64,000 nucleotides of DNA from Candidatus Woesebacteria bacterium UBA5941 (lineage in GTDB: Bacteria > Patescibacteriota > Microgenomatia > UBA8517): assembly GCA_002430735.1 (NCBI GenBank), contig DJCV01000010.1, positions 7,705-71,704 of the forward strand, in the 5' to 3' direction. Positions 1 to 27,868 of the stretch are shown piece after piece (position 1 is the first letter of the stretch; every line of letters starts with the position of its first letter). A program made the position numbers and the translations under genes. The notes beneath the pieces were generated by a model. It saw only the letters and a program-made list of their open reading frames with translations. It was not told the origin of the DNA and made no database searches.

Positions 1-1822
1 TATTACTCAATATGAAATGCATGCCTGTGAAGATGTGGGGCTTATTAAGTTTGATATCTTGGGTATTCGTAACTTATCCATTTTGGGAGACGCAATAGCT
101 CTCGTGAATGAATCACGAGGAATGGAACTTGATTTGCGCAAGTTTCCGCTCGATGACACCAAAACTTTTGAAATGTTATCGCGAGGAGAAACCATGGGGG
201 TATTTCAACTCTCTGGAGGAGGAATGACCAAGTATCTGATGGATTTGAAGCCTACGAAAATTGAAGACTTGATGGCAATGGTTGCATTATATCGACCAGG
301 ACCGATGGCTGTGATTCCTGAATACATTGCCCGAAAAAATAATCCTAATCTGATCCACTATTTAGATCCCCGAATGCGCAAATTCTTAGAGGCGTCGTAC
401 GGGCTTATTGTGTATCAAGATGACTTGCTCTTTAGCGCCATCGATCTAGCTGGATACACTTGGGAAGAAGCAGACAAATTCCGAAAAGCGGTTGGAAAAA
501 AGATTCCTGAAGAAATGGCAGCTCAGAAAGACAAATTTGTACAAGGAATTATTAAAAATGGCCAAACAGCGCAATTTGCCGAAGACTTATGGAAACTCTT
601 TGAACCATTCCAGTCGTATGGATTTAACAAAGCGCACGCGGCGAGTTACGGAATGGTCGCATATCAAACGGCGTATATGAAAGCGAACTTCCCGGTTGAG
701 TATATGACTGCCCTCATGACTGCAGAAAGTGGAGACACTGAAAAGATTACTGAAGCCATTAACGAATGTAACCGAATGGGAATTGTAGTGTTGCCTCCAC
801 ATGTCAACGAGAGTGATATTGGGTTTAAGGTTGTTCCTCACGAGGATTCAATTGAGGGAAATGGTATTCGATTTGGGTTTTCTGCAATTAAAAACGTCGG
901 AGGAGCTGCAATTGAGGCAATTATTGCTGCACGAAATGAAGCACCATTCACTTCATTTATCGATTTTTGTCAGCGTGTTGATGGAAGACGGGTAAATAAA
1001 CGCGTTCTTGAGAGTCTTATTAAAGTAGGGGCGATGGGCGCCTTCGGCAATCGTGCCAGCTTACTGGAGAGCGTTGATGAAGTACGATCAAAAACAAAAC
1101 CAGTCAGTACCACAGCACAGCAAGGTCTTTTCTTCGAAGAGGAGGAGGAAAAGCGATCTGCCACTCCTACTATTACGCATATTCTTGATACAAAACCTGA
1201 ATTTGAAGAAGATGTTTTAATTGGGCTTGAGCGAGAACTCATGGGATTCTCGCTATCGGCTCCTGCAGTCTCACAGCTTGTTGCTGAGTTAACCCCATAT
1301 CAAACACATCAGATATCCCATTTGAAAGCAGACGACCTTCCAAAGGAGCCAGTGAAGCTTGCATGCGTCATTTCTGAAGTCCGTACCGTTATTACCAAAA
1401 AGACCTCAGCTGAGATGGCATTTGCAAAGGTGAACGATGGGACGGGGAGTATGGACATTGTGGTGTTTCCAAAGCTCTACGCACAAACAAAAGAACAGTG
1501 GGTTGAACAAAAGCCGGTGCTAATTACGGGGAAACTGGATTTACGAGACGACGTTGTAAATATGCTTGCCGATTCAATTGAAACAGTCGCAACGCTCAAG
1601 GAAAAAGGAGGAACGCTCAAAATCACTATTCCGATGGGTACTGAATCCCAGAAATTGAAGGAATTAAAGGATTTATTGGAAACTAGCCCCGGAAGCCAGA
1701 AGGCAATTCTTGTCTTTGATGGAATGAACCATGAAGTGGAAGTACCGTTTACGATTCTTTGGAATCAAGACCTATCCCGAAAAATTGCAATGCTCCTGTC
1801 CGAGCAACCCTTGCAGAACTAA
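1..1822 (+). CDS. dnaE: DNA polymerase III alpha subunit, C-terminal part (5' end lies off the window)
   Basis: ORF 17..1822 has no upstream stop before the window edge. Motifs GVFQLSGGGM, YRPGPM and NKAHAASYGMVAYQTAY with an OB-fold tail are typical of DnaE. Confidence 0.88.
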   Translation, partial: ITQYEMHACEDVGLIKFDILGIRNLSILGDAIALVNESRGMELDLRKFPLDDTKTFEMLSRGETMGVFQLSGGGMTKYLMDLKPTKIEDLMAMVALYRPGPMAVIPEYIARKNNPNLIHYLDPRMRKFLEASYGLIVYQDDLLFSAIDLAGYTWEEADKFRKAVGKKIPEEMAAQKDKFVQGIIKNGQTAQFAEDLWKLFEPFQSYGFNKAHAASYGMVAYQTAYMKANFPVEYMTALMTAESGDTEKITEAINECNRMGIVVLPPHVNESDIGFKVVPHEDSIEGNGIRFGFSAIKNVGGAAIEAIIAARNEAPFTSFIDFCQRVDGRRVNKRVLESLIKVGAMGAFGNRASLLESVDEVRSKTKPVSTTAQQGLFFEEEEEKRSATPTITHILDTKPEFEEDVLIGLERELMGFSLSAPAVSQLVAELTPYQTHQISHLKADDLPKEPVKLACVISEVRTVITKKTSAEMAFAKVNDGTGSMDIVVFPKLYAQTKEQWVEQKPVLITGKLDLRDDVVNMLADSIETVATLKEKGGTLKITIPMGTESQKLKELKDLLETSPGSQKAILVFDGMNHEVEVPFTILWNQDLSRKIAMLLSEQPLQN

Positions 1823-1880
1823 CGATTATGCCCTGGTTCTTGCTAAATACGCAGTAAATCAGGTACAATAACGATCACGT

Positions 1881-2276
1881 ATGGCAATCATGACCACCCA
1901 CAAAGAAACAACCTTCGGAGTAGGAGATGTAGTTCGAGTACATCAACGACTTTTCGAGGCTGGAACAGACAAAAGCCGTGTGCAAGTTTTTGAAGGAACG
2001 GTAATTGCTATTCGTGGAAAAGATATGGGTAAAAGTGCTGTGGTTCGACGAATTGGTTCTCAAAACGTTGGAATGGAAATGATTTTTCCCTTAAATGCTC
2101 CTACTATTGAAAAAGTCGAAATCTCAAAGGCTGGAGTCAAAGGAGTAAGACAAGCAAAATTGTACTTTATTCGTGAAAAGAGCCGACGTGAGATTGATAA
2201 GATCTATTCTCGAACTCACAAAAAGGATCTTGAACCGCAAGCGAAGAAAAAGACAGTTAAAAAGACTGCAAAGTAA
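1881..2276 (+). CDS. rplS: 50S ribosomal protein L19 with a lysine-rich C-terminal tail
   Basis: GDVVRVHQRLFEAG..RVQVFEGTVIAIRGK..VVRRIGSQNVGMEMIFPLNAP matches the L19 signature. Confidence 0.9.
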   Translation: MAIMTTHKETTFGVGDVVRVHQRLFEAGTDKSRVQVFEGTVIAIRGKDMGKSAVVRRIGSQNVGMEMIFPLNAPTIEKVEISKAGVKGVRQAKLYFIREKSRREIDKIYSRTHKKDLEPQAKKKTVKKTAK

Positions 2277-2329: not shown

Positions 2330-4237
2330 GTGAAGCGCATTAGTTTCTTCTTTATTTCTCTTCTTGGTTTGTTTTTCCTCTCCTCAAAGACAATTTATGC
2401 ACGCGAAGCAGTTATTTCCGTTGTGAACCCCGTTCGTATCTCTAGCTATACCATTAATATCGCTGAGAGCATCAAAGCACAAGCGCTCGTGACTCGCGAA
2501 TTAGCTATTCCAGCAACATGGCTTATAACGCACGAGATATTAGAAAACGAATCAGCGTTGCAAGAAATAAAATCCCTTCCCCAGGATCATGAAATAGGGT
2601 TGTTCTTAGAAATTTCTGAGGCATTGGCCAGGAAAGCTGGCGTTACCTATAAAAAACCTGATTATTGGTATCACCCGAAAGCGCTGTTTCTCTCAGGGTA
2701 CACACAGGATGAACGGGTTCGCTTGATCGATACGTTATTCAGCATTTTTAAAGAGCGCCTTGGTTATACACCAACCTCAGTCGGGTCGTGGTGGACTGAT
2801 AGCTTTAGCTTGGACTACATGCAAAAGACGTATGGCATTACGGCAAACCTTATGTGCAGTGACCAATATGCGACCGATAACTATCAATTGTGGGGACAAT
2901 ACTGGGGTGCGCCATTTTATCCCTCAAAAATACACGCAGGAAACCCTGGGACTGCAGACAATAAAATCGATGTTGTTATGATGCCGTGGGCACTCAGGGA
3001 CCCGCTTCATGGATATCAATCAAGTCTGTATAGCACCCAAGATTACTTCACCACAACAGAGAAACTCGATGAAACGTATTTTCAGAAAATCTTACATACC
3101 TATTTGTTTGACGAGAGAAACCCGTTTGGACTTGCCGTCATTGGCCTTGAAGGGGATTTTAATCCAGAAAACTATTCAGAACAGTATAAAACACAGCTTA
3201 CGATTGCGAAGGGAATGCGTGATACAGGAAAAATTAAAATCCAAACCATGAAGGATTTCTCAACGTATTACCGTAATCAGTTTGGAGAAACCCCCCAAAT
3301 GCAGATAACCGCGCCAGATTTATTGGGTGGAAACACCACGACCGAGTGGGTTAATTCACCATACTATCGAGTAGGACTTCGGTATAGAGAAAACGCAAAT
3401 GAGGTAACTATTTTCGACATACGTGCATATGATCAAAACTTTAAGGAGCCTTATTACAGTTCTCCGAATAGAGATTCCCATTTATCCATCGTTCTCCCAG
3501 GGGTACTTGATTCATATATTAATCCAAGTAGTACATGGACAATCCCACTTTCAAGGAACGATATCACGTTTCAAGAACGCTCAATTGTATTTCGTAGTCC
3601 AGTCGTTATTCCGAATCACATTCAACAAAACAATCGGGTGCAATCTTCTCGTCAGTCTCTCTCATTCCTCCCATGGAAATATCCAATCGAAGGAGTGGAG
3701 CTGCGTGCAGTAACTCCTGAAGCATGGAGTGTGCTTGGTTCAAATAAAGCGCGGCTGTTTTTCTTAGCAGGATGTGGTGGACTTATTCTGTTATTCGTCA
3801 TTGGATACAAAAAACAATCAATTATCTTGGCGCTTTTTATTGTAGGGGTCTTTTTTATACAAGGAACAGATCTTTATTTAGTCACCCCCGGAGAACTTGA
3901 TGCGCTATCCTTTTTAAAAACAAAGCCAGAAGGAGTGGTACTCGTTCCTGATACTGAATGTTTGCAATGTGAATATCACACCACGAGAAAACCTATTTTT
4001 ATGGTAAATAGCAGGGGATATGTGTCGCTGCTCTCGCAAAAACCTATTGTCTACAGTAACACAGTGTTTCAGGCACAGCGGGAAGAGATAAAAGAGACGC
4101 TTACGAAAACAAATGCACGATATTTATACCTCACGAAATTTGAAAGCTATACAGAGGAGTTGCCGTACTCACCAGGGGATAGTGGCGTCAAAAAGATATT
4201 TGAAAACGCAAACGTAACAATCTGGGAACGTGAGTGA
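2330..4237 (+). CDS. Hypothetical exported protein (635 aa) with an N-terminal signal peptide and a C-proximal TM anchor
   Basis: Long ORF with a GTG start. The hydrophobic leader MKRISFFFISLLGLFFLSS and a TM segment around aa 470-510 are visible. I recognise no family. Confidence 0.55.
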   Translation: MKRISFFFISLLGLFFLSSKTIYAREAVISVVNPVRISSYTINIAESIKAQALVTRELAIPATWLITHEILENESALQEIKSLPQDHEIGLFLEISEALARKAGVTYKKPDYWYHPKALFLSGYTQDERVRLIDTLFSIFKERLGYTPTSVGSWWTDSFSLDYMQKTYGITANLMCSDQYATDNYQLWGQYWGAPFYPSKIHAGNPGTADNKIDVVMMPWALRDPLHGYQSSLYSTQDYFTTTEKLDETYFQKILHTYLFDERNPFGLAVIGLEGDFNPENYSEQYKTQLTIAKGMRDTGKIKIQTMKDFSTYYRNQFGETPQMQITAPDLLGGNTTTEWVNSPYYRVGLRYRENANEVTIFDIRAYDQNFKEPYYSSPNRDSHLSIVLPGVLDSYINPSSTWTIPLSRNDITFQERSIVFRSPVVIPNHIQQNNRVQSSRQSLSFLPWKYPIEGVELRAVTPEAWSVLGSNKARLFFLAGCGGLILLFVIGYKKQSIILALFIVGVFFIQGTDLYLVTPGELDALSFLKTKPEGVVLVPDTECLQCEYHTTRKPIFMVNSRGYVSLLSQKPIVYSNTVFQAQREEIKETLTKTNARYLYLTKFESYTEELPYSPGDSGVKKIFENANVTIWERE

Positions 4238-5681: not shown

Positions 5682-6094
5682 TGTATCGAAGAAAACAAAA
5701 AACTGTTGGGAAAGTTGATTGGGTTCGCGCACCGGACATTCATCACCGCGTACTCACACTGGTTGAACGGCTTGAATTGACATGGATTGAACCAGAAAAA
5801 ATTTATGCCGTACGCTCCACGGGAAGTTCAGCCCGTGCATATGCGCGCATTTGGGGAATGAGTCGAGTATGGCAAATTGCCGCGGGACTTCCGGCACTCT
5901 ACTGTATTGAAGTTGTTGCTCAATATTTCGATAAGCTTTCCCATAAAGAACAAGATAAAGTATTGCTCCACGAATTAGCACACATCCCTAAAAATTTCAG
6001 TGGGGCACTGCTTGCCCACACCCATTCAAAAGGAGGGTTCCATGACAAATTGCATGAGATGCTTGCTTCATATAATAGAATTAAGAAAGACTAG
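5681..6094 (+). CDS. Putative metal-dependent hydrolase carrying an HExxH motif (DUF45/YgjP- or SprT-like)
   Basis: HELAHIPKNF...HTHSKGGFH. The ATG overlaps the ruvC stop (TAATG). The family assignment is tentative. Confidence 0.55.
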   Translation: MYRRKQKTVGKVDWVRAPDIHHRVLTLVERLELTWIEPEKIYAVRSTGSSARAYARIWGMSRVWQIAAGLPALYCIEVVAQYFDKLSHKEQDKVLLHELAHIPKNFSGALLAHTHSKGGFHDKLHEMLASYNRIKKD

Positions 6095-6115
6095 TTACCA
6101 ATAGAGGAGCACTGT

Positions 6116-6293
6116 GTGAAGTCAATTCGATATCTCTACTTGGCATACCTATTTGTGACATTAGGAGTAATTTCACTTTCAGTAACGATGTATCACAATC
6201 TGCGTCAAGTAAGTGTAGTAATGGCTGCCGCGCTTGTTCCATGGATCATTGTAGAAGCGATATCAGTACTCAGAAAACGTACTTGCCAATAGC
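6116..6293 (+). CDS. Possible small membrane protein (59 aa, below the ORF-track cutoff)
   Basis: GTG start 6 nt after GGAGG. Two hydrophobic segments. Followed by a terminator. Confidence 0.3.
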
Positions 6294-6302
6294 CAGTCAT
6301 AA

Positions 6303-6326
6303 AAGCCGCACATTCCGCGGCTTTTT
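6303..6326 (+). terminator. Intrinsic terminator
   Basis: aagccgc-acattcc-gcggctt followed by a T-run. A TATACT -10-like element follows. Confidence 0.6.
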
Positions 6327-6338
6327 CATTGGTATACT

Positions 6339-7019
6339 ATGCTCACAATGAAGGTTGTTGTAATTTTCGGTGACGATGAAGCAAAGAGCGATGCTCGTTT
6401 TAGGCACATTGTCTCTCAGGTTAAAAAACGCGGGTGGGAATGTGTTGCACTCGCTGATTCGTCTGTCTTGTCAGAAGTGATCGCTGGAAGCTCACTCTTT
6501 TCAAATGAACGACTGCTCAGTGTAATGCATGCTGCAAAAGTGCCTGTAAAGGAATATCAGTGGCTCGCAACCCACCACGAGCAATACGATGGAAGACTCC
6601 TTTTGTATTTTAAAAGCACGGTGCCAGCTGCTATCAAAAAACTACTGCCGAAAGATACGGTCTTTGAGGAATTCAAGCTCAAAAAGGAATTATTTTCTAT
6701 TATGGACATGGTATATCCAGGGAACTTCACACCAGTTATGAAGACCTTCCATACGATTATCAAAACAGACCCACCAGAACTTGTTATGGCACTTTTAGGA
6801 AGGCATCTGCGAGATCTTGTCTTAGTCAAAGCTCAGTCAAAAGCGCTACACCTTCCCGCATGGCGACTGCAAAAATTAGAACGACAAGCTAAACGCTTCA
6901 CAAATGAACAGCTTCTCCTTTTTACTCACGAACTTGCAGAAGCAGATCTCAAAAGTAAAACCGGAAAGGGAGATCTCGTCGTATTAATCGATCTCGCAAT
7001 TTCCAAATATTTACGATGA
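6339..7019 (+). CDS. holA: DNA polymerase III delta subunit-like (short HolA)
   Basis: The N-terminal VVIFGDDEA resembles the HolA YLLYGEDE box and the C-terminal LAEADLKSKTG resembles the HolA tail. The assignment is tentative. Confidence 0.45.
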   Translation: MLTMKVVVIFGDDEAKSDARFRHIVSQVKKRGWECVALADSSVLSEVIAGSSLFSNERLLSVMHAAKVPVKEYQWLATHHEQYDGRLLLYFKSTVPAAIKKLLPKDTVFEEFKLKKELFSIMDMVYPGNFTPVMKTFHTIIKTDPPELVMALLGRHLRDLVLVKAQSKALHLPAWRLQKLERQAKRFTNEQLLLFTHELAEADLKSKTGKGDLVVLIDLAISKYLR

Positions 7020-7026
7020 GTGTAGA

Positions 7027-8460
7027 ATGCAGATAATGAGTGAACCCCAGATAAACACAACCATGTTCCGCGGATATGACATTCGAGGGGTGGTTGGAGA
7101 AGACTTAACTCCTGAAATTGTAAATCGATTAGCCAAAGCATACGCAACATTTCTCTACAGGCGTCAAATTCGTGAATGCGTGGTTGGCATGGATATTCGA
7201 GAGAGCTCGCCTGAATTTAAAGATTCGTTTATCGCAGGTCTTGTTGAGATGGGGATTAATGTGGTGGATTTCGGTTTATCACTTACACAAATTATGTATT
7301 TTGCTCAATATCATTATTTATCCAAAGGGGGAGCAATGATAACCGCTTCTCATAATCCACGAGAGTTTAATGGGCTGAAGTTAGGAGTCGGCTTTTCTGA
7401 CACTTTAATTACAGAAGAAATCCAGGAACTGAAAGAGATTACTTTGTCCGGTGAATTCAAAGGCTGGGATAAAACAGGGAGTGTACGCGTTGACGATGTG
7501 TTTCCTTCATACAAAGCAGATCTATTTAAAAGAATCCCTTTACATGATTCAGGACTCAAGGTTGTTATCGATTCATCCTGTGCCACAACCGGTAAATTCT
7601 TGCCAGACATATTACGCGAAGCAGGATGCACGGTGATTGAACAAAACACCAATCTCGACCCAACATTCCCACTTGGAACACCTGATCCAACTGAAAAAGA
7701 TGTCTTAGAGCGTCTTGCAAAAGGTGTTTCTGAACATCAGGCCGACTTAGGTGTTGCGTATGATGCAGATGGAGATCGCGTTGGCGTCGTTGACGCACAC
7801 GGGAGGCTCCTGTGGAATGACGTTCTCGTTGCGCTTTTTGCGCAAGATATATTGCATTATCTTCCCAACAGTCCAATTGTTTTTAACGCCCTCTGTTCAA
7901 AGGTCGTCGTTGACACCATAAAATCTCATGGAGGCGAGCCCGTTATGTGGCTTACAGGCCATAGCTTTATTAAAGCAAAAGTGCGAGAGACCCGAGCACC
8001 CTTTGGTGGAGAACTCTCAGGACACTTTTTCTTTATGGATAATTTCTACGGGCACGATGACGGGGCCTTCGCAACATTACGACTGTTGCAATTTTTAAAG
8101 CGAACAGGGAAAACGCTCGCTCAAGCAGTTGATGAATTGCCTCAGTATATAAGTAGCCCTGAAATTAAGTTAGGGCTTGCCGACACTATTAAGTTTGATT
8201 TTGTAAAAACACATTTTGCAAACGATATTAAGGCACTGTTCCCAAATGGAGCGTATACAGATATCGATGGATTCAGGGCAGATGATGCGACGCGCATGGC
8301 AATCATTCGCGCGAGCCAAAATGGACCGTATGTCACAATTAAATTTGAAGGAAAAACACAAGAGGAATACGACGCTCTCAAAAATGCAATTAAACAGATC
8401 CTCCAAAAATATACAGAGGTTGACTGGGAAAAAGGAGTCAACCTCAATGGATTTGAATAG
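7027..8460 (+). CDS. Phosphomannomutase/phosphoglucomutase (alpha-D-phosphohexomutase family)
   Basis: The active-site TASHNP motif (ITASHNPREFNGLKLG) and an N-terminal FRGYDIRGVVGEDLTPE. Confidence 0.85.
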   Translation: MQIMSEPQINTTMFRGYDIRGVVGEDLTPEIVNRLAKAYATFLYRRQIRECVVGMDIRESSPEFKDSFIAGLVEMGINVVDFGLSLTQIMYFAQYHYLSKGGAMITASHNPREFNGLKLGVGFSDTLITEEIQELKEITLSGEFKGWDKTGSVRVDDVFPSYKADLFKRIPLHDSGLKVVIDSSCATTGKFLPDILREAGCTVIEQNTNLDPTFPLGTPDPTEKDVLERLAKGVSEHQADLGVAYDADGDRVGVVDAHGRLLWNDVLVALFAQDILHYLPNSPIVFNALCSKVVVDTIKSHGGEPVMWLTGHSFIKAKVRETRAPFGGELSGHFFFMDNFYGHDDGAFATLRLLQFLKRTGKTLAQAVDELPQYISSPEIKLGLADTIKFDFVKTHFANDIKALFPNGAYTDIDGFRADDATRMAIIRASQNGPYVTIKFEGKTQEEYDALKNAIKQILQKYTEVDWEKGVNLNGFE

Positions 8461-13209: not shown

Positions 13210-14490
13210 ATGGCTAAGATAACCAAAATTTGGGCGAGAGAAATATTAGATTCTCGTGCTACTCCGACTGTTGAAGCTGCGTGCCAACTCGATACTGGGC
13301 TGATTGCAGTTGCATCAGTCCCTTCAGGAATGTCGACCGGATCCCACGAAGCGCTTGAACTGCGTGATGGAGATGCGACCAGATACTGGGGTAAGGGAGT
13401 ATTGAAAGCCGTTTCGAACGTCAATACGGTTCTAGGCCCAGCTATTGCACAAGCAGGAATTGATGCGTCAAATCAGCAACAAGTTGATGATTTATTGAGA
13501 CAACTCGACGGCACTGAGAATAAGTCTAAATTAGGCGCAAACAGCATACTTGCGGTATCACAAGTAATATTAAAGGCTGGAGCTGCAAGTCAAAACATGC
13601 CAATTTACCAGTGGGTTGCAATGCTTGCAAAAGCAAAAGGAATCGAAGCTCGAATTCACGCTCCCACCCCACTTTTTAACATGATAAACGGAGGATTGCA
13701 TGGGGCAGGAAACCTCGACTTCCAAGAATTTTTTGTAATTCCTGCAAGTTCAAAGCCGTATTCAGAAGGGCTTCGTATTGGAGTGGAAATCTACATGACA
13801 ATTGGAAATAACTTAGCAAGACGAGGTGCAATTCACTCTGTTGGGAATGAAGGAGGATATGCGCCGAATTTGTTCACCAATACCGATGCCCTTGAAATAT
13901 TAGTAGAGTCAATCAGGGAAGCTAATTACCAAATTGGCCGAGATGTATTTCTCGGGTTAGATGTTGCAGCAGACACATTTTATAAAAACGGTGTGTACAC
14001 CATTCGCGATAAATCTACTCCATTAAACGAGACAGCGTTGATTGAATTTTATAAAGAAGTAAACAATATGTATCACTTAGCAGTACTTGAAGACCCACTG
14101 TATGAAGACGGGTGGGAGGGGTGGAAGAAGTTGAGACAAACGTTAGGTGACCAAATTGCAATTGTTGGGGATGACTTATTAGTTACCAATCCAAAACGTG
14201 TTGAAAAAGCAATTGCAGAGGAAGCATGTAATGCAATTTTAGTTAAGCCAAACCAGATTGGAACTATTTCAGAAACAATTGATGTTATTAAAAAAGCACG
14301 AGACGCGAAGTGGAAGGTTATTGTCTCTCACAGGTCTGGAGAAACTAATGAATTTTTAATTGCAGACTTTGCCACAGGAGTGGGCGCTGATTATGTGAAG
14401 TTCGGTGCTCCTGCACGAGGAGAGCGCGTTGCCAAATACAATAGACTTCTTTCTATTGAAGCAGAGCTCATGATGACTCAAAACAAATAA
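13210..14490 (+). CDS. eno: Enolase
   Basis: MAKITKIWAREILDSRATPTVEA is an enolase N-terminal signature, and the C-terminal SHRSGETNEF motif is present. Confidence 0.95.
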   Translation: MAKITKIWAREILDSRATPTVEAACQLDTGLIAVASVPSGMSTGSHEALELRDGDATRYWGKGVLKAVSNVNTVLGPAIAQAGIDASNQQQVDDLLRQLDGTENKSKLGANSILAVSQVILKAGAASQNMPIYQWVAMLAKAKGIEARIHAPTPLFNMINGGLHGAGNLDFQEFFVIPASSKPYSEGLRIGVEIYMTIGNNLARRGAIHSVGNEGGYAPNLFTNTDALEILVESIREANYQIGRDVFLGLDVAADTFYKNGVYTIRDKSTPLNETALIEFYKEVNNMYHLAVLEDPLYEDGWEGWKKLRQTLGDQIAIVGDDLLVTNPKRVEKAIAEEACNAILVKPNQIGTISETIDVIKKARDAKWKVIVSHRSGETNEFLIADFATGVGADYVKFGAPARGERVAKYNRLLSIEAELMMTQNK

Positions 14491-20396: not shown

Positions 20397-23300
20397 ATGA
20401 TGTTTTCTAGATACGTTATGCATCTTGTTAAAAAAGCATTGGCAGTAGTTTCTCTCGGTGCTTTTTTCACCCTCATTTTTCTTCTCTCCCCACAAACCGT
20501 AACAAAAGGAGCACCACAAAATTTCACCAATGAAACAATTATTTTAAATCTTGTTGAACCGACAGGAATTCAATTTTTGCCCGACGGACGAATGATTATT
20601 ATTAACAGGTATGGATCTGTCAGAATGGTTCAAGCAGGTGCAACGACACTGGACGCAACACCGGTGCTTACCCTAACAAACATTAATACAGACCAAGGCG
20701 AGCGCGGATTAGTCGGAATTACCATTGATCCAAACTTTGCTTCAAATGGGTATATATATCTCTTCTACACAGCAAACAGTCCTCTGAGAGATCGCGTTTC
20801 TCGCTTTACAGTGAATGGAAATACAGCCGCTTTGAATACTGAAGTTGTGATTTGGCAAGACACCGTTGAAGCACAATTGTGGCATCACGGGGGAACTATC
20901 GCATTTGGCCCAGACAGTAAACTCTATATTTCAACAGGAGATGGTTTTGACAGCCCTGTATCTCAAAACTTAGCAAGCTTCAGAGGAAAAATATTGAGAG
21001 TTAATTCAGATGGCACAGTACCAACAGATAATCCGTGGGCCGGAGATGGTAATTCTAGTACACTTGATCATATTTGGGCACGAGGACTCAGAAATCCATT
21101 TAGATTTTCATTTGATTCTCTCAATGGGAGAATGTACATCGGAGATGTTGGTGGGAATAACCAGGTTTCTTCAATTGAAGAGGTTAATCTTGGTGCGGCA
21201 GGTGCCAACTTTGGATGGCCAGTTTGTGAAGGGAATTGTGGAACTGCTGGAATGACCAATCCAATATTCACCTATCCACATAACAATCGAGATTCATCTG
21301 TCACTGGCGGAATTGTGTATAGAGGAGGAAACTTTCCAAGCGCTTATCAAGGATCATATTTCTACGGAGATTATGTACAAAATTGGATTAGACGACTTAC
21401 TTTTGATGCAAACGGGGTTGTATTAGGGAGCCAAAACTTTGAGCCTGAAAGCGGTGGTAGCGATGGACCTTACGGCGAAATAGTTGATATTAAGCAAGGG
21501 CCTGATGGTGCACTCTACTATGTAGACTTTGGCGCAACATGGGAAGGTGTTTCAAATCCGGGCACAATACGACGAATTAAATACACTGGCGCAAACACAC
21601 CTCCCCTTATCACACAAGCTACAGCTGATGTGACTTCTGGACCAGGACCTCAACTCACTGTTTCATTTACGGCAGTTGCAACAGACGCTGAAAACAATCC
21701 ACTGACATATACCTGGGCTTTTGGTGACTCACAAACGGCAACAGGTGCACAAGTCACTCATACATACACACAAAAAGGGCAATACGATGCACGAGTGACG
21801 GTTTCTGATGCACAAGGACAAACAATTTCAAATCCCATTACGATAACAGTAGGCATCGCTCCTGTTGTTACAATTCTCTCTCCATCCACTGGTACAACAT
21901 TCAGAGCAGGGGACGTTATTAGTTATTCAGCAAGTGCAACAGACAGCGATAGCAGTATTACTGCAGCTAACTATTCATGGCGGGTGATTATGAACCATGC
22001 CAGTCATACCCATCCGGAAGAAGGACCGATTAATGGAGTGACAAATGGAACATTCACAGTTCCCGTATCAGGACATGACTTAGACAATACAACGTCCTTT
22101 GATATCGTTGTAACAGTCACAGATGAAGTAGGGTTATCAGATACCAAGGCCGTTCGAGTAAACCCTGAAACAGTGCAACTCACGTTGACAACAAACCCAG
22201 TTGGCATTCCACTTGCGTTTGGACAAGAATTCGGACTAGTGACACCATTTACAACGTCACGCGTTATCGGGTTCCAAATACCAGTCGTAGCACCGACAAC
22301 AACAACAGTTAATAATAGTCAGTACGAGTTTACTTCATGGTCCGACTTGGGTGCTGCAAGTCACACGATAACAGTACCAACAACAAACCAAACAATTACC
22401 GCGACTTATACCCAAACAGCACCGTCAACAACAGCATCTCTCACCTTTGACGGAGTTGATGACTTTGCCTTCAACAATCAAATAGGGGCGAGTGGCACAC
22501 AAACAATTGAAGGATGGATTAAACCAACTGTTGCTTTACAAAACACTATAGTTTTAGGCAATTTTAACGACTCAAATGGATGGTCAATTGAATTAACTTC
22601 CGGACAGCCGACGTTTTGGAGAGGGAGTGGTGGAAGTTGGTCAAGCATCCAAGGAACAACAGCGCTACCAGTAAACGCATGGTCACACGTAGCAGTGACA
22701 CATAATGCAACTACGGGCGATACCAGAATATACCTTAACGGCATTCAAACTGCCGCTGCAACCATGAGTGCAATCGGTGCAACCAATAGCTTTAGACTCA
22801 ACAGTAATTCAGGGTATCCGTTTTTCGTCGGACGAATTGATGAAGTTCGTGTATCAAATGCAATTCGATATACAACAGCATTTACCCCAAGTGCAACGGC
22901 ATTTAGCACAGACGCACAAACAGTGGCTCTCTATCACTTAGACGAAGGTTCGGGCCAAGTATCAGCTGATGCATCTGCAAACAATTACACATTAACACTT
23001 GGACAGACAAATGCCGTAAATGCATCAGATCCAACATGGACAGTAAATGACTCACCGTTTACCGTAAGTACGCCGACACCCACACCAACTGCAACACCAA
23101 CACCTTCACCGACCCCAAGTCCTACGCCTACTCCTTCACCGACACCTACCGCAACACCGACAGCGACTCCAACTCCTACTCCTACTCCTAGTGCTACGCC
23201 AACTCAAACGCCTACGCCATCACCAACACCAACGCCGACACCACCACCTGTGGTAAATGGAGCACTCACATTTGATGGGTCAAACGACACAGTAGGCACT

Positions 23301-23891
23301 GCAGCAATTTCCTCACAGGGAACAAAAACAATTGAAGCATGGGTGAGACCGTTGGTTGCAAATGAAAACGCTGTTGTCGCAGGCAACTATAATGACAACA
23401 ATGGATGGGCTTTGGAATTAAATAACGGTCGAGTAGCGTTTTGGGTTGATAATGGCGGGGGATGGAGTTCGGTTACCGGAACAACACAATTAGCTGTAAA
23501 TACGTGGTATCACATAGCAGCTACTTACAACGCAACTACGAGAGTTGCTGTTATATATGTGAATGGCGTTGCACAGGCTACAAGAAATGTAGGACTAATC
23601 CGAAATGTCACAGCATTTGTTTTGGGAGGGTCAACTGGATATCAATATTTAAATGGACAACTTGATGAGGTGCGCCTTTCAAGCATCGTTCGGTATACTG
23701 CTAATTTCACCGTACCTTCAACACAGTTTACAAACGATGCCTCAACTGTTTTGCTCTATCACTTTAATGAAGGAACAGGGCAAATAGTGACGAATGCAGC
23801 AAGCACTTCTTACTCATTATTTTTGGGTGGGACCAGCGCTATTCAAACGTCCGACCCAGTCAGAATTACATCAACCGCACCAACGGAATAA
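20397..23891 (+). CDS. Large secreted multidomain surface protein: PQQ-type glucose/sorbosone dehydrogenase beta-propeller, two PKD domains, LamG, a Pro/Thr linker and a second LamG
   Basis: N-terminal TM/signal segment. sGDH signatures [14 protein letters not shown] and [24 protein letters not shown] signature [16 protein letters not shown]...[13 protein letters not shown]. Two homologous LamG modules, each opening with LTFDG...W(I/V)(K/R)P. Confidence 0.85.
23072..23250 (+). repeat. Low-complexity Pro-Thr/Ser linker ([16 protein letters not shown]...) inside the surface protein
   Basis: Direct reading shows (P-T/S/A) dipeptide repeats of about 59 aa separating the two LamG modules. Confidence 0.85.
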
Positions 23892-24338: not shown

Positions 24339-24587
24339 TCAGGCAGTGGAAGCAGCGTTGTCAGGCTGGGTATATTCACCCTTGCCATAAACAAGGACTT
24401 TGAAAACCGTCTCATTTTTGTTTCGGCGCTTATGTTGTTCAAAGTCGCGGTCTCGTCTTACAACCAGAGGGTCACTTTTTCCCCTCAAGTGCATCACGAC
24501 GACTCCGCCAGTGGGTAAAGCATTCGTGAGCTTGTTCCACCGAATCTTGCCCAGCTTCTTCCCTGAGAGATCTGTCATTTCAAGCAT
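24339..24587 (-). CDS. Hypothetical small basic protein (82 aa)
   Basis: AGGAG lies 7 nt upstream of the ATG on the minus strand. Lys/Arg-rich. Confidence 0.45.
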   Translation of the reverse strand: MLEMTDLSGKKLGKIRWNKLTNALPTGGVVVMHLRGKSDPLVVRRDRDFEQHKRRNKNETVFKVLVYGKGEYTQPDNAASTA

Positions 24588-25018
24588 TTCTTACTCCTAA
24601 TATCAATAAATAGAAGGACAGTTTTGCCACTCCCTTTTTTTAGGGAAATTGTAGTATATAAAATTTTTATGAAAAATGCAAACTAATATAGGATACATGC
24701 TGGGTGACGAAAACGTCACCCAGCTGTTGAAGCTCGTTACTCAAATTTCTTGCTGTGCTTTTTATCGCACTCTGCACAATGGAAGCCTCTATTGCCAGTG
24801 CAGTACGTGCATGTGCAGTTACACCGGCGACGACGGAGCGCTACATGTCGATACAAGCTCCATAGTAAAAATAACTTAGTCACAGAGTTACTCCTTATGA
24901 AAAAAAGTAGAACGAGCCACTTGGCTACAAGTGTACGCAATTATATACCTTTTTTATTTTCTTACAAAAGAGGTCTTGTTTATAGACAAGAAAGCATAAA
25001 ATCCATACACTGAAACAT

Positions 25019-26407
25019 ATGAGTTTACCTGCCCTGAAAAAAGCTTCACTCCCAAAGGCTCCCCCTTTAGTAAAGCTGCTCGGACCAAGCTTTATTCTCT
25101 TAGGCCTCGGGTTAGGAAGTGGGGAGTTGATTCTCTGGCCATATCTCGCTTCTCAGTATGGGTTAGGTATTATTTGGGGGGCAGTGTTGGGTATTACGTT
25201 GCAATTTTTCATTAATATGGAAATTGCACGATACACATTAGTGACAGGGGAGAGCGTGTTCGTAGGGCTCACCCGAAAGTTAGGTGGCATTTCACCTATT
25301 TGGTTTATTTTCTCAACGCTTATTCCCTGGATGTGGCCGGGAATAGCTGCAAGTGCAGCAACGCTTCTTGCGGCGCTTTTTGGCATCTCATATACCCCTA
25401 TTATTCCGATTGGGTTATTGCTCGCAATTGGGGTCATTTACACATTAGGGCCTGTTATTTACAAAACACAAGAAACGCTACAGCGTTTAATTATTATTAT
25501 TGGAGTACCATTTATTTTTGGACTTGCTATTTATTTTGCTGGCCCAAGCGATTGGGAAGCGCTGGGGAGAGGCGTGTTAGGATTTGGGTCACACTTTTGG
25601 TTAGTGCCTGCAGGAATTTCCGCAACGACATTTTTGGCTGCGTTTGCGTACGCAGGCGCCGGTGGAAATTTAAACCTCGGACAGTCGTTATATATAAAAG
25701 AAAAAGGGTATGGGATGGGGAAGTACTCAGGACGGCTCACAAGTTTTTTAACGGGTAAAAAGGAGGATGTGTCGCTTATTGGTACAACATTTGAAATGAA
25801 TCAAAAGAATGTGTCTCTCTTTAAAGATTGGTGGAGAAAAATTAACATTGAGCACGCAGTAGTCTTTTGGGCAACAGGGGCAACAACAATGCTCCTTTTG
25901 GCACTACTTGCATACATTACTGTTTTTGAAAAATCGAGCACTTCTGGTATTAACTTTGTGATCGAAGAGGCACATGCTATGACTGCCCTCGTTGGTCCAG
26001 CTGTGGGTGTTTTATTTTTATCTGTTGCAACGGTTATGCTTTTCTTTACTCAATTTTCAGTGTTTGGAACCACAAGCAGGATTATGACTGAGAACTTACT
26101 CCTAGCTAGTTCTGCATTTAAAACAAAACATGCAGGCAATTATTTCTATTTCTTTTTGTGGCTACAAATTCTTTTGGGAATAATTGTATTTCTCCTTGGG
26201 TTTAAAGAACCGCTTACCTTGGTTATTATTGGAGCGGTCCTCAATGCATTTTCAATGTTTATTTATACCGGTCTTGTTTTGTGGCTCAATAAAACAAGCC
26301 TTAAAAAGGCAGTACAACCAAACAGGTTTAGAACCAGTATTGTCAGTGTGGCATTTCTGTTTTACGGTGGCTTCAGCTTGTACACAATTATCGACCGTCT
26401 GTTTTAG
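25019..26407 (+). CDS. Nramp-fold (MntH-related) membrane transporter with a non-canonical metal-site motif
   Basis: Ten to eleven TM segments. LGPSFILLGLGLGSGELIL...TGE aligns with the Nramp TM1 motif GPGFL..DPGN, but GSGE replaces DPGN. Confidence 0.55.
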   Translation: MSLPALKKASLPKAPPLVKLLGPSFILLGLGLGSGELILWPYLASQYGLGIIWGAVLGITLQFFINMEIARYTLVTGESVFVGLTRKLGGISPIWFIFSTLIPWMWPGIAASAATLLAALFGISYTPIIPIGLLLAIGVIYTLGPVIYKTQETLQRLIIIIGVPFIFGLAIYFAGPSDWEALGRGVLGFGSHFWLVPAGISATTFLAAFAYAGAGGNLNLGQSLYIKEKGYGMGKYSGRLTSFLTGKKEDVSLIGTTFEMNQKNVSLFKDWWRKINIEHAVVFWATGATTMLLLALLAYITVFEKSSTSGINFVIEEAHAMTALVGPAVGVLFLSVATVMLFFTQFSVFGTTSRIMTENLLLASSAFKTKHAGNYFYFFLWLQILLGIIVFLLGFKEPLTLVIIGAVLNAFSMFIYTGLVLWLNKTSLKKAVQPNRFRTSIVSVAFLFYGGFSLYTIIDRLF

Positions 26408-26431: not shown

Positions 26432-27469
26432 ATGCGCAAGCTGTTTTTTGCATTATTACTCATTGGAGTTTCAGTACTTTCATTCATTGGTGGCAGAGTA
26501 TCACGGACCACTGATACTCGTGTTTTTACGCTGAATCCCACTCCTGTTCCAACTCCATTAGCCAAATATACAATTGAAACACTCAAAAATGCGACAATCG
26601 TTCCAGGTTCTTTTCAAAGCGGTGAATTGATCAATGACACGAAAGACATTACCGTGCAAACATTTCATATGAGCTATGATCCAACACTCTCAAATGGACC
26701 TATTAAAAAAGTGAGTGGAGTTATAAACATGCCAAAAGAAGGATCAAACTTGCCACTTGTTGTCATGCTCCGAGGATTCGTTGATCAAAGCATTTATGCG
26801 CCGGGTGTTGGTACCAAAAATGGAGCCGCCTTTTTCGCAGAAAATGGCTTTATTACAGTGTCGCCAGACTTTCTTGGATACGCGTCTTCAGACAGCGAAT
26901 CAGGAAACATCTTTGAAACACGGTTTCAAACATATACGACAGTACTCACGTTACTCCACTCTATCCCAACTCCTTCATTTTCAGATTTAACTGGCGGGCG
27001 TTGGGACGGGAAAAATATTTTCATATGGGCACATAGTAACGGTGGGCAAGTGGCATTGACCACGCTTGCCGTGACTGGGGAGAGTTATCCAACGACACTC
27101 TGGGCACCTGTTACCAAGCCGTTTCCGTATAGTGTTTTATACTACACCGATGAATCTGCAGATGGAGGGAAATTTATTAGAAAAGAATTAAGTAAGTTTG
27201 AAACGCTATATAACACTGATCAGTATTCCTTCACAAATTACCTCCCAAACATTAAAGGTCCGCTGCAATTTCAGCAAGGTACCGCTGATGACGCTATTCC
27301 ATTTGAATGGACACGAAGTATCGTAAATAGATTGAGAAAAAATGAGGTCGAAGTAAGCTACTTTGAATATCCTGGTGCAGATCACAATATGCGGCCATCA
27401 TGGGATGAAGTAATTGCAAGAGACATTGCCTTTTTTAATAAGTGGATGATAGTAGCTCAAGAAGAGTAA
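26432..27469 (+). CDS. Secreted alpha/beta-hydrolase (S9 prolyl-oligopeptidase or dienelactone-hydrolase-like)
   Basis: Signal peptide. The nucleophile elbow GHSNGG lies in the sequence IFIWAHSNGGQ, with a downstream Asp (GTADDAIP) and His (PGADHNM) in catalytic-triad order. Confidence 0.7.
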   Translation: MRKLFFALLLIGVSVLSFIGGRVSRTTDTRVFTLNPTPVPTPLAKYTIETLKNATIVPGSFQSGELINDTKDITVQTFHMSYDPTLSNGPIKKVSGVINMPKEGSNLPLVVMLRGFVDQSIYAPGVGTKNGAAFFAENGFITVSPDFLGYASSDSESGNIFETRFQTYTTVLTLLHSIPTPSFSDLTGGRWDGKNIFIWAHSNGGQVALTTLAVTGESYPTTLWAPVTKPFPYSVLYYTDESADGGKFIRKELSKFETLYNTDQYSFTNYLPNIKGPLQFQQGTADDAIPFEWTRSIVNRLRKNEVEVSYFEYPGADHNMRPSWDEVIARDIAFFNKWMIVAQEE

Positions 27470-27532: not shown

Positions 27533-27868
27533 ATGAATATATTTCTAGGCCTTATCATTAATATTATTAGCTTAATGGTCGTCAGCTATCTTATCCCTGG
27601 CTTTTACTTTGTCGACTTTAGAGCATTGCTCGTCGCAGCAGTTGTTATTGGGATTATTAACAGTTTCATTAAGCCAGTATTGCAGCTTATCGCACTCCCG
27701 CTTTCAATTGTTACTTTGGGACTTTTTGCATTCTTCGTAAATGTTGCGTTACTGTGGCTGGCAGCAGAAATAGTACCAGGTTTTCAAATTCAGAATTTCT
27801 TTACAGCAGCAGTAGCTTCAGTCGTGATGGCATTAATTGGTGCCTTTTTCCATAAGATGGATCACTAA
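27533..27868 (+). CDS. Phage-holin family 4 / DUF360 (YvlD-like) four-TM membrane protein
   Basis: The arrangement GF..V...A.L.AA.V.G..N..I.P.L..L.LP..I.TLGLF...VNV..L typifies the holin_4_2 family. Confidence 0.65.
   Translation: MNIFLGLIINIISLMVVSYLIPGFYFVDFRALLVAAVVIGIINSFIKPVLQLIALPLSIVTLGLFAFFVNVALLWLAAEIVPGFQIQNFFTAAVASVVMALIGAFFHKMDH

Follow-up and report, generated by a model that had tools for sequence, protein, structure and literature searches.

Proteins belonging to the SLC11/Nramp family, including DraNramp (6D91/8E5S) and E. coli MntH, have in common a LeuT-type fold with discontinuous transmembrane helices 1 and 6 (TM1 and TM6). Canonical Nramps carry the paired motif DxxN-AxxM in these helices, NRATs carry DxxN-AxxT and the Nramp-related magnesium transporters (NRMTs) carry DxxG-TxxA/T, and the aspartate is described as ‘universally conserved in all SLC11 proteins’ (PMC8806188). 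In NRMTs (EleNRMT, 7QIA; CabNRMT), the methionine and the proton pathway have disappeared and newly acquired small residues widen the pocket (PMC8806188, PMC4072509), while the aspartate remains essential, as judged from the D55A mutant (PMC8806188). Pfam family PF01566, as defined by Cellier, comprises SLC11, its outgroup and the NRMTs (PMC9606685). A further Nramp-family protein, YcsG/PxpT (MntG) of the pxpABC 5-oxoprolinase clusters, has a disputed substrate: it is needed for growth on 5-oxoproline (PMC13274462) and was alternatively reported as a Mn2+ importer (PMC10448178). Here, we describe a divergent relative of these proteins, a 462-amino-acid transporter of the GSGE type, together with the 431 bp upstream of it (24588..25018, between an 82-amino-acid minus-strand open reading frame (ORF) and the transporter ATG). 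Both lie in a 64,000-nucleotide stretch (the window) of Candidatus Woesebacteria bacterium UBA5941 (contig DJCV01000010.1, positions 7,705 to 71,704).

A first reading of the letters without database searches (the sequence-only reading) had described this locus as an Nramp-fold transporter with a substituted metal site behind a structured, ORF-poor leader of ~350 nt. Our analysis retains the transporter and replaces the leader. We propose, with a probability of about 0.78 for the explanation as a whole, that the locus consists of four ordinary, tightly packed transcription units rather than a single gene with a long structured leader (Table 1). The transporter would be transcribed from a sigma-70-type promoter as an mRNA that is leaderless or nearly so. 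Divergent from it would run an uncalled gene for a 48-amino-acid cysteine-rich protein, with its own promoter, Shine-Dalgarno site and terminator hairpin. The 82-amino-acid minus-strand ORF would form a third unit with its own promoter-like sites and Shine-Dalgarno site, and an S9-type hydrolase gene followed by a PF04020 membrane-protein gene would form the fourth. Every element of the supposed leader is accounted for by the unannotated small gene, its terminator and three promoters, and the transporter itself belongs to a deep, uncharacterised branch of the Nramp superfamily.

The assignment to that superfamily draws on a profile match and on a predicted structure. The NCBIfam model NF037982 (‘Nramp_1’) matches the transporter with 300.2 bits (E = 2.6e-89; cut-off 50 bits), aligning residues 22–428 to profile positions 1–404, and it matches DraNramp and E. 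coli MntH in the same register (MntH residues 22–375 on positions 1–404). PF01566, TIGR01197 and NF001923 give no match to the transporter at E <= 1, the Pfam search returns no hit overall, no AA_permease match was found for the family, and PF01566 is matched by two of 29 homologues, weakly (best E = 9.3e-6, below the gathering score). By these profile searches the transporter family lies outside PF01566. No Nramp was recovered at E <= 10 when PDB chains were searched by sequence with the protein and with the 29-sequence profile. Aligning the family profile to the MntH/DraNramp profile with hhalign gave nothing usable, both alignments being low in diversity (the E. coli MntH homologue set contained only sequences at least 87% identical).

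An AlphaFold (AF2) model built from the 29 homologues (predicted local distance difference test score, pLDDT, 85.8; predicted template-modelling score, pTM, 0.88; low confidence at TM1a, residues 23–32) breaks at residues 21–33 and 211–215, that is, at the discontinuous TM1 and TM6 of a LeuT-type fold. In a Foldseek search of the PDB with this model, each of the top 18 matches was to a structure of an Nramp, of YcsG or of an NRMT, with E about 1e-7 to 1e-8 for the canonical Nramps, the best being DraNramp (E = 3.5e-8), the YcsG model, ScaDMT, BfraNramp and EleNRMT. Target-normalised TM-scores were 0.74–0.82 for the Nramps, the highest belonging to DraNramp, and the predicted fold superposed on the YcsG model (9A52) with the lowest root-mean-square deviation, 3.8 Å. 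A second tier was made up of the APC amino-acid carriers GkApcT, SLC7A10, AdiC, BasC and ApcT, with TM-scores of 0.57–0.63. Profile and model thus agree in predicting an Nramp-superfamily protein, in the broad sense, with a LeuT fold. The sequence-only reading had proposed an Nramp fold, which the 300-bit match and the Nramps heading the Foldseek list bear out.

Within this common fold, the substrate site is substituted. TM1 reads LGPSF...GLGSGELILWP, so that the flanks known from canonical Nramps, LGPxFI...YG..(I/L)(I/L)W, recur around a different core. Position 1 of NF037982 is the glycine of the common LGP motif, which is G22 in both the transporter and E. coli MntH. Because G22 is a common anchor and TM1 contains no indel, MntH D33-P34-G35-N36 corresponds to G33-S34-G35-E36 of the transporter. 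A register check through homologue P0114, whose residue 45 falls on PF01566 position 9 as does MntH residue 45, gives the same result, as do an unfiltered hmmsearch (--max) of the family hidden Markov model against MntH and a mafft profile-profile alignment. All four mappings replace the metal-coordinating aspartate of TM1 by glycine and the asparagine by glutamate, just as the sequence-only reading had it.

The other elements of the canonical site likewise appear to be missing. In the AF2 model, TM6 consists of a helix (202–210), a glycine- and alanine-rich coil (211–215, Y211-A-G-A-G215) and a second helix (216–229). The canonical A-x-x-M-P-H is absent: residues 190–232 contain neither methionine nor histidine, M233 lies in a loop, and no alignment puts either amino acid at the site. 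The TM3 positions that are aspartate or glutamate in canonical Nramps are hydrophobic in the mafft-profile alignment, which at ~14% identity is weak evidence. A further difference from canonical Nramps is an insertion of ~35 residues after TM6b. In this arrangement, E36 would be the sole acidic residue at the site. It is also invariant: among 77 orthologues at 51–100% identity, G33, G35 and E36 are found in 77/77 and S34 in 75/77. Further invariant residues are G22-P-S, G31, W40-P41, G213-A214, G216 and L218-N219, while S34, G215 and N217 each deviate in just one or two of the 77.

The transporter therefore reads, at the sequence level, as none of the described types: it fits neither the canonical, the NRAT nor the NRMT motif, all of which retain the aspartate. 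It resembles the NRMTs, of which EleNRMT is among its close structural matches, in combining an Nramp fold with an altered site that lacks the methionine and apparently the proton pathway. By contrast, NRMTs keep the aspartate (DxxG; PMC8806188) where the transporter has a glycine, have a glycine where it has Glu36 (the G/N position), and fall inside PF01566, whereas its family falls outside. Nor was an M-box riboswitch found at the transporter. The analogy to M-box-regulated NRMTs that the sequence-only reading had drawn consequently does not hold. Because the side chains on which SLC11 metal and proton transport depend appear to be gone, a canonical Mn2+/Fe2+:H+ symporter appears very unlikely.

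This substituted site is widespread. The databases hold more than 3000 homologues, mostly from Patescibacteria. Relatives occur in 333 GTDB species genomes; nearly all titles listed for these name Patescibacteria, among them Woesebacteria, Levybacteria, WWE3 and Saccharibacteria. A large number of metagenome-assembled genomes with the gene, from binchicken and SRP co-assemblies, bear the title ‘uncultured Gammaproteobacteria bacterium’, a label that is probably wrong. A tblastn search of plasmid records retrieved full-length relatives at 28–36% identity in Rubrobacter, Aureimonas, Nonomuraea and several haloarchaea. The Rubrobacter, Aureimonas and haloarchaeal relatives retain S-G-E in TM1, and most retain A-G-A-G-G in TM6. 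Since S-G-E is kept in such distant phyla, the substitution would be the hallmark of an old, cross-domain clade, not a local oddity. All annotated plasmid-borne relatives are named ‘Nramp family divalent metal transporter’, a name that stems from a model of very wide reach, whose cut-off is 50 bits. Thousands of genes in Patescibacteria, Actinomycetota, Alphaproteobacteria and haloarchaea thus bear a metal-transporter name while lacking the known metal and proton residues, and metabolic reconstructions probably credit these organisms with a Mn/Fe importer on weak grounds. A literature search on Nramp proteins in Patescibacteria or Saccharibacteria, and on leaderless mRNAs in Patescibacteria, returned nothing relevant.

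Turning to the region upstream, we found that its conserved part is a gene on the opposite strand. We aligned this region with its counterparts in L001 and L021, the genomes closest to this one (78–79% identity in the transporter). In a minus-strand frame, all three related Woesebacteria-type genomes encode a small protein of the pattern CxCxCxxC-x7-CxxC with an invariant GNRGFHCAECD, 48 amino acids long in the window and 41 in the relatives. The ORF starts with GTG at 24883 in the window and with ATG in the relatives. Its AAGGAG Shine-Dalgarno site has counterparts in both: GGGAGA 7 nt before the ATG in L001 and AAGGAG 8 nt before it in L021. Over a 25-codon core, the three genomes differ by 42 synonymous and 16 non-synonymous codon changes (pairwise 15/3, 13/6 and 14/7), and 17–18 of ~26 nucleotide differences fall on codon position 3. 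In a six-frame control, only this frame was both open in the three genomes and rich in synonymous changes. Each of the other five shows stops or mostly non-synonymous changes; the best of those on the plus strand is interrupted by stops in two genomes. Because the frame is open in three genomes, with an excess of synonymous changes and a third-position bias, the small ORF reads as a protein-coding gene under purifying selection. The region is therefore not ORF-poor, as had been stated of it.

No gene caller predicted the small ORF in any source assembly. In L021, the caller lengthened the transporter by 115 codons at its start, across the small ORF, to give a 577-amino-acid protein (P0002, 3656..5389; conserved start at 4001). 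This is an annotation artefact, the plus frame being open by chance over that stretch. Homologues of the small protein were found neither in a word-index search of 5.8 billion proteins nor in Pfam, NCBIfam or two metagenome DNA scans, and an exhaustive phmmer search of 1.8 billion proteins returned three weak matches, to cysteine-rich repeat proteins. A single-sequence AF2 prediction gave no confident fold (pLDDT 54). We considered a SCIFF-like precursor of a ribosomally synthesized and post-translationally modified peptide and dropped the idea, there being no NCBIfam match and no radical-SAM gene seen among the annotated neighbours.

The small gene also explains the hairpin that had suggested a structured leader. 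The sequence-only reading had noted a perfect hairpin with a 10-bp stem. An inverted repeat is indeed present and folds far better than shuffles (24699–24709/24714–24724; free energy –24.6 kcal/mol, z = –6.1); its stem is 11 bp with a 4-nt loop, and it most plausibly belongs to the minus-strand gene, whose stop codon it follows. At the equivalent place, L001 and L021 have hairpins of differing sequence that both lead into a minus-strand T-run, as is classic for intrinsic terminators. In its GC-rich stem and its position right after a stop codon, the element resembles Rho-independent terminators, from which the window copy differs in having no T-run. We infer that it is the terminator of the small gene. 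It is this single strong hairpin that makes the 371-nt stretch as a whole fold better than its shuffled versions (z = –3.3). The 147 nt nearest the transporter start codon, between it and the small ORF, are unexceptional (z = –1.5; 14 of 200 shuffles fold as well).

A second hairpin (TCTTGT/ACAAGA) that had been placed before the start codon is likewise present, as part of an 18-bp near-palindrome ending 27 nt before the ATG. It is an unremarkable 6-bp repeat, since 15 inverted pairs of 6 nt or longer occur within the 431 bp, and it is absent at the aligned position in L001 and L021. The near-palindrome is either chance or a lineage-specific operator, which could serve the transporter and the small ORF jointly.

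Promoter geometry accounts for the remaining elements. In a consensus promoter scan, the predicted transporter promoter abuts the gene: its –10 box ends 7 nt before the ATG, which would leave a leaderless mRNA and no room for a riboswitch. In the corresponding promoters of L001 and L021, TACACT stands 9 and 6 nt before the respective ATGs and is separated by a 17-nt spacer from TTGCTA or TTGCCA. Among 78 orthologous loci, 53 have a TAnnnT box that ends 4–10 nt before the ATG (5–9 in practice, mostly 6–7), compared with 9–18 of 78 in shifted controls. The commonest box is TAAACT, often with CTTGCxA 17 nt upstream, and a Shine-Dalgarno-like site precedes the transporter start in 3 of the 78. This pattern implies that the transporter mRNA would be leaderless or nearly so. 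The –10 box predicted for the divergent small ORF is kept as TATAAT or TATACT in L001 and L021 (invariant alignment columns). The promoter-like TTGTAGTATATAA of the sequence-only reading exists at 24649..24661; the matches there are on the minus strand only and face the 82-amino-acid ORF. On the plus strand, the scan found no promoter upstream of 24983, including at 24649.

The leaderless layout looks like a habit of these organisms rather than a feature specific to the transporter. In the window, a –10-like box (TACACT, TAAACT or TATAAT) stands 6–9 nt before the ATG, without a Shine-Dalgarno site, at many genes, for example those at 13210, 14808, 16466, 25019, 26432, 34041, 46026 (–) and 50061, and the same is seen in loci L002–L088. 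Clear Shine-Dalgarno sites occur at other genes, including the small ORF and the 82-amino-acid ORF. These observations suggest that leaderless mRNAs may be common in these Patescibacteria. The locus is similar to known divergent sigma-70 promoters and leaderless mRNAs in its –35 and –10 boxes, its 16–17-nt spacers and the distance of 6–9 nt from –10 box to ATG without a Shine-Dalgarno site.

Could a structured 5’ leader of ~350 nt, starting near TTGTAGTATATAA and acting as a riboswitch or other cis-regulatory RNA, nevertheless control the transporter, as the M-box does for NRMTs? The overall folding energy, the perfect hairpin and the ~50-nt block conserved in L001 and L021 would each be expected of such a leader. 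Yet the block evolves as minus-strand coding sequence, and the hairpin lies 12 nt past the stop codon of the small gene with a minus-strand T-run in both relatives. No plus-strand promoter is found at 24649, and no Rfam family matches. Between 24200 and 25200, Rfam at E <= 10 gives only an SpF25 small RNA (E = 0.71) and a Baculoviridae NAE (E = 4.1), both chance matches, and a scan of the whole window at gathering thresholds gives tRNAs only and no riboswitch. The sequence-only reading, which had suggested such a scan, had itself recognised no M-box or yybP-ykoY motif, and the scans agree. Nor does the leader recur upstream of orthologues: BLAST of the 431 bp against 80 orthologous loci detects similarity in L001 and L021 only, and there only in the ~50-nt block over the small ORF. 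The median distance from the transporter start to the nearest upstream ORF of at least 70 amino acids is ~56 nt (78 loci), and the gaps are mostly shorter than 100 nt with the –10 box adjoining the ATG, so that in most orthologues the gap is too short for a riboswitch. Long gaps hold tRNA genes (L031 3592..3947; L078 3762..3833), and in 15 long-gap orthologues no Rfam riboswitch abuts the transporter. (A SAM-I/IV riboswitch match in L059, at 1088..1209, lies ~2.8 kb upstream and is unrelated to the transporter.) Judged from these comparisons, no riboswitch is present and the structured-leader model is largely refuted; we regard it as barely credible.

The conserved element might instead be a non-coding or antisense RNA, divergently transcribed, that regulates the transporter. 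That the small ORF is confined to three genomes, escapes gene callers and has no protein homologue, domain or confident fold would fit an RNA, but the frame is uninterrupted in each of the three genomes, synonymous changes outnumber non-synonymous ones 42:16, there are invariant cysteine, histidine and glycine positions, and a consensus Shine-Dalgarno site lies 7–8 nt from each start codon. To a non-coding element we therefore give only a slim chance. The preferred account, with a small protein-coding gene divergent from a nearly leaderless transporter gene, means that the regulatory part of the sequence-only reading is to be dropped; this is not a riboswitch discovery. For genome scanning, it illustrates that what looks like a structured leader poor in ORFs can turn out to be an overlooked micro-gene of the opposite strand plus its terminator.

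Presumably the transporter works by alternating access, with the substrate held between the unwound segments of TM1 (GLGSGE) and TM6 (AYAGAGGN). We infer, as a working model, that Glu36 serves as a coupling-ion or charge-compensating residue and that the glycine-rich backbone binds a substrate other than a transition metal. The database name would make the protein an ordinary Mn2+/Fe2+ importer. It matches NF037982, its fold is nearest to MntH structures, a glutamate at the asparagine position could ligate a metal, the neighbouring gene specifies a cysteine-rich small protein, and in haloarchaea some relatives lie behind ArsR-type regulators. Against this stand the glycine in place of the SLC11-universal aspartate (PMC8806188), the lack of methionine and histidine in TM6 and of the TM3 acidic residues in the profile alignment, and the absence of any PF01566, TIGR01197 or MntH-model match, the name itself having come from a very broad model; we think this function unlikely. 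Import of a hard or hydrated cation (Mg2+- or Ca2+-like), with Glu36 and carbonyls of the glycine segments lining an enlarged site, would make the protein an NRMT analogue. As in NRMTs (PMC8806188), the soft methionine ligand and apparently the residues of the proton pathway are gone and the site is widened by small residues, one carboxylate is kept, and the fold is close to EleNRMT (7qia). The NRMTs, however, keep their essential aspartate (D55A; PMC8806188) and belong to PF01566, neither of which is true of the transporter family, no M-box was found, and some relatives sit in organic-acid catabolic clusters. We consider a hard-cation importer doubtful, though a better candidate than a Mn2+/Fe2+ importer.

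A small organic acid or amino-acid-type solute is weakly favoured over a hard cation. The neighbours of the distant relatives are of interest here. Near the Rubrobacter relatives are genes for GntR/FadR regulators, a UxaA-family hydrolase, lutABC and a four-carbon-acid-sugar kinase. The Aureimonas relative adjoins isocitrate lyase, and the haloarchaeal relatives adjoin helix-turn-helix or ArsR regulators, an L-lactate permease together with an FAD/Fe-S oxidoreductase, or an ABC system for branched-chain amino acids. YcsG/PxpT, among the top structural matches, offers a precedent for an Nramp-family protein required for using an organic substrate, though one that the reported Mn2+ import turns the other way; the window differs from its clusters in having no pxpABC neighbours. 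The G-S-G of TM1 and the F-A-Y-x-G of TM6 are reminiscent of APC carriers (AdiC, GkApcT, SLC7), which have the same superfamily fold and for which we take (F/Y)-x-(F/Y)-x-G to be the TM6 motif; this is a lead, not a test. The G-S-G aligns with that of AdiC. The resemblance to AdiC is not statistically significant, the TM1 segment scoring –14 bits. APC carriers also differ in their TM-scores, which are below those of the Nramps, and in their AA_permease signature, which the family lacks. The part of our estimate that these three substrate classes leave goes to something else.

A broader proposal, which we rate as less likely than not, is that GSGE/AGAGG-type proteins are non-metal transporters that import organic acids or amino-acid-type solutes and represent a lineage between APC carriers and the metal-transporting SLC11 proteins. 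If so, backbone atoms of the glycine-rich TM1 and TM6 segments would bind a carboxylate or amine while Glu36 couples a cation. The protein, which is highly conserved in Patescibacteria (51–79% identity among the orthologues fetched), would be a core nutrient-scavenging permease of these genome-reduced organisms, often encoded beside a membrane-anchored exo-hydrolase. One Woesebacteria lineage would have, in the cysteine-rich micro-protein, a partner or regulator that is new and escaped annotation. A deep Nramp-fold branch with an APC-like glycine-rich site could show how metal specificity originated.

Several observations weigh against the account given here. The equivalence of TM6 residues to A-x-x-M-P-H is ambiguous, as the canonical methionine position falls on F205 in sequence alignments and on G213 or A214 by the AF2 helix break, a disagreement of ~8 residues. 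The transcription start site, the absence of a leader and termination at the hairpin are all predicted from the DNA, and the window hairpin, for all its 11-bp stem right after a stop codon, has no T-run. TAnnnT is common in this AT-rich genome, and among long ORFs called mechanically in the loci some 50% have one near the first ATG, so that it is the position and conservation of the promoter, not its rarity, that speak for it. Only three related genomes have the small ORF, for which no homologue or fold was detected. Clues to the substrate conflict, too: GntR, UxaA, lactate and acid-sugar neighbours point to organic acids, while ArsR-type regulators in haloarchaea and the cysteine-rich neighbour of the transporter could indicate a metal.

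Table 1. Features of the transporter locus and of related loci. Coordinates are those of the window unless a locus is named.
Feature	Position	Strand	Basis or remark
GSGE-type Nramp-superfamily (LeuT-fold) transporter gene, 462 amino acids	25019..26407	+	Sole long ORF listed in 24000..26700
Codons for G33-S34-G35-E36, at the Nramp D-P-G-N position in unwound TM1	25115..25126	+	Alignment to E. coli MntH D33-P34-G35-N36
Codons for F209-A-Y-A-G-A-G-G-N-L-N219, Gly/Ala-rich unwound TM6	25643..25675	+	AF2 secondary structure; near-invariant in 77 orthologues
Predicted sigma-70-like transporter promoter, TAGACA-17-TACACT	24983..25011	+	–10 TACACT at 25006..25011, ends 7 nt before ATG
Near-palindrome, 18 bp, TCTTGTTTA / TAGACAAGA (the earlier ‘second hairpin’)	24974..24991	.	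Overlaps the transporter –35 box, between two divergent –35 boxes
Predicted small-ORF promoter, TTGTAA-16-TATAAT	24940..24967	–	10/12 consensus positions; ~50 nt upstream of small ORF
Shine-Dalgarno site of small ORF, AAGGAG	24891..24896	–	7 nt upstream of GTG
Unannotated small gene, 48-amino-acid Cys-rich protein ending RRRRCNCTCTYCTGNRGFHCAECDKKHSKKFE	24737..24883	–	Open frame, Shine-Dalgarno site and codon-change pattern in three genomes
Orthologue of small protein, 41 amino acids, ending RRCRCTCDLCTGNRGFHCAECDKKHQHT	L001 3407..3282	–	
Orthologue of small protein, 41 amino acids, ending RKCNCTCHFCAGNRGFHCAECDRKYQQ	L021 3884..3759	–	
Putative terminator hairpin of small ORF (the earlier ‘perfect hairpin’)	24699..24724	–	12 nt downstream of small-ORF stop codon
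Promoter-like sites for 82-amino-acid ORF, TTTGCA-18-TATACT and TTTTCA-16-TACAAT	24648..24682	–	Overlap TTGTAGTATATAA
82-amino-acid ORF, function unassigned, divergent from transporter	24339..24587	–	Called as gene in source assemblies; GGAG 6 nt before ATG
Membrane-anchored S9/alpha-beta-hydrolase gene	26432..27469	+	Pfam Peptidase_S9 5e-9; own TATAAT 7 nt before ATG
PF04020 (Phage_holin_4_2-type) membrane-protein gene	27533..27868		Downstream of hydrolase
S-G-E-type genes outside the candidate phyla radiation	L090 (Rubrobacter plasmid) 584..2008, 5938..7407; L091 5827..7269; L092–L095 (haloarchaeal plasmids)		

Downstream, the order of transporter, membrane-anchored S9/alpha-beta hydrolase and PF04020 protein is kept across Woesebacteria-like lineages with very short spacers. 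Of the loci fetched, tblastn detects the hydrolase in ~40, and in most of these it follows the transporter (23 loci under stricter ORF clustering). In neighbourhood clustering of the 78 loci it is the sole recurrent partner, the remaining neighbours being clade-specific (GalE-like and membrane proteins) and uninformative. This order could reflect a functional module or merely clade-level synteny. On the other side, the 82-amino-acid ORF has no Pfam or NCBIfam match and is not homologous to the ORF at the equivalent place in L021. Further upstream, 20397..23891 (+) encodes a secreted-looking protein of 1164 amino acids, for which the source-assembly records show no Pfam hit; it has long Pro/Thr/Ser linkers (PTPTPSPTP...) and two similar C-terminal modules.

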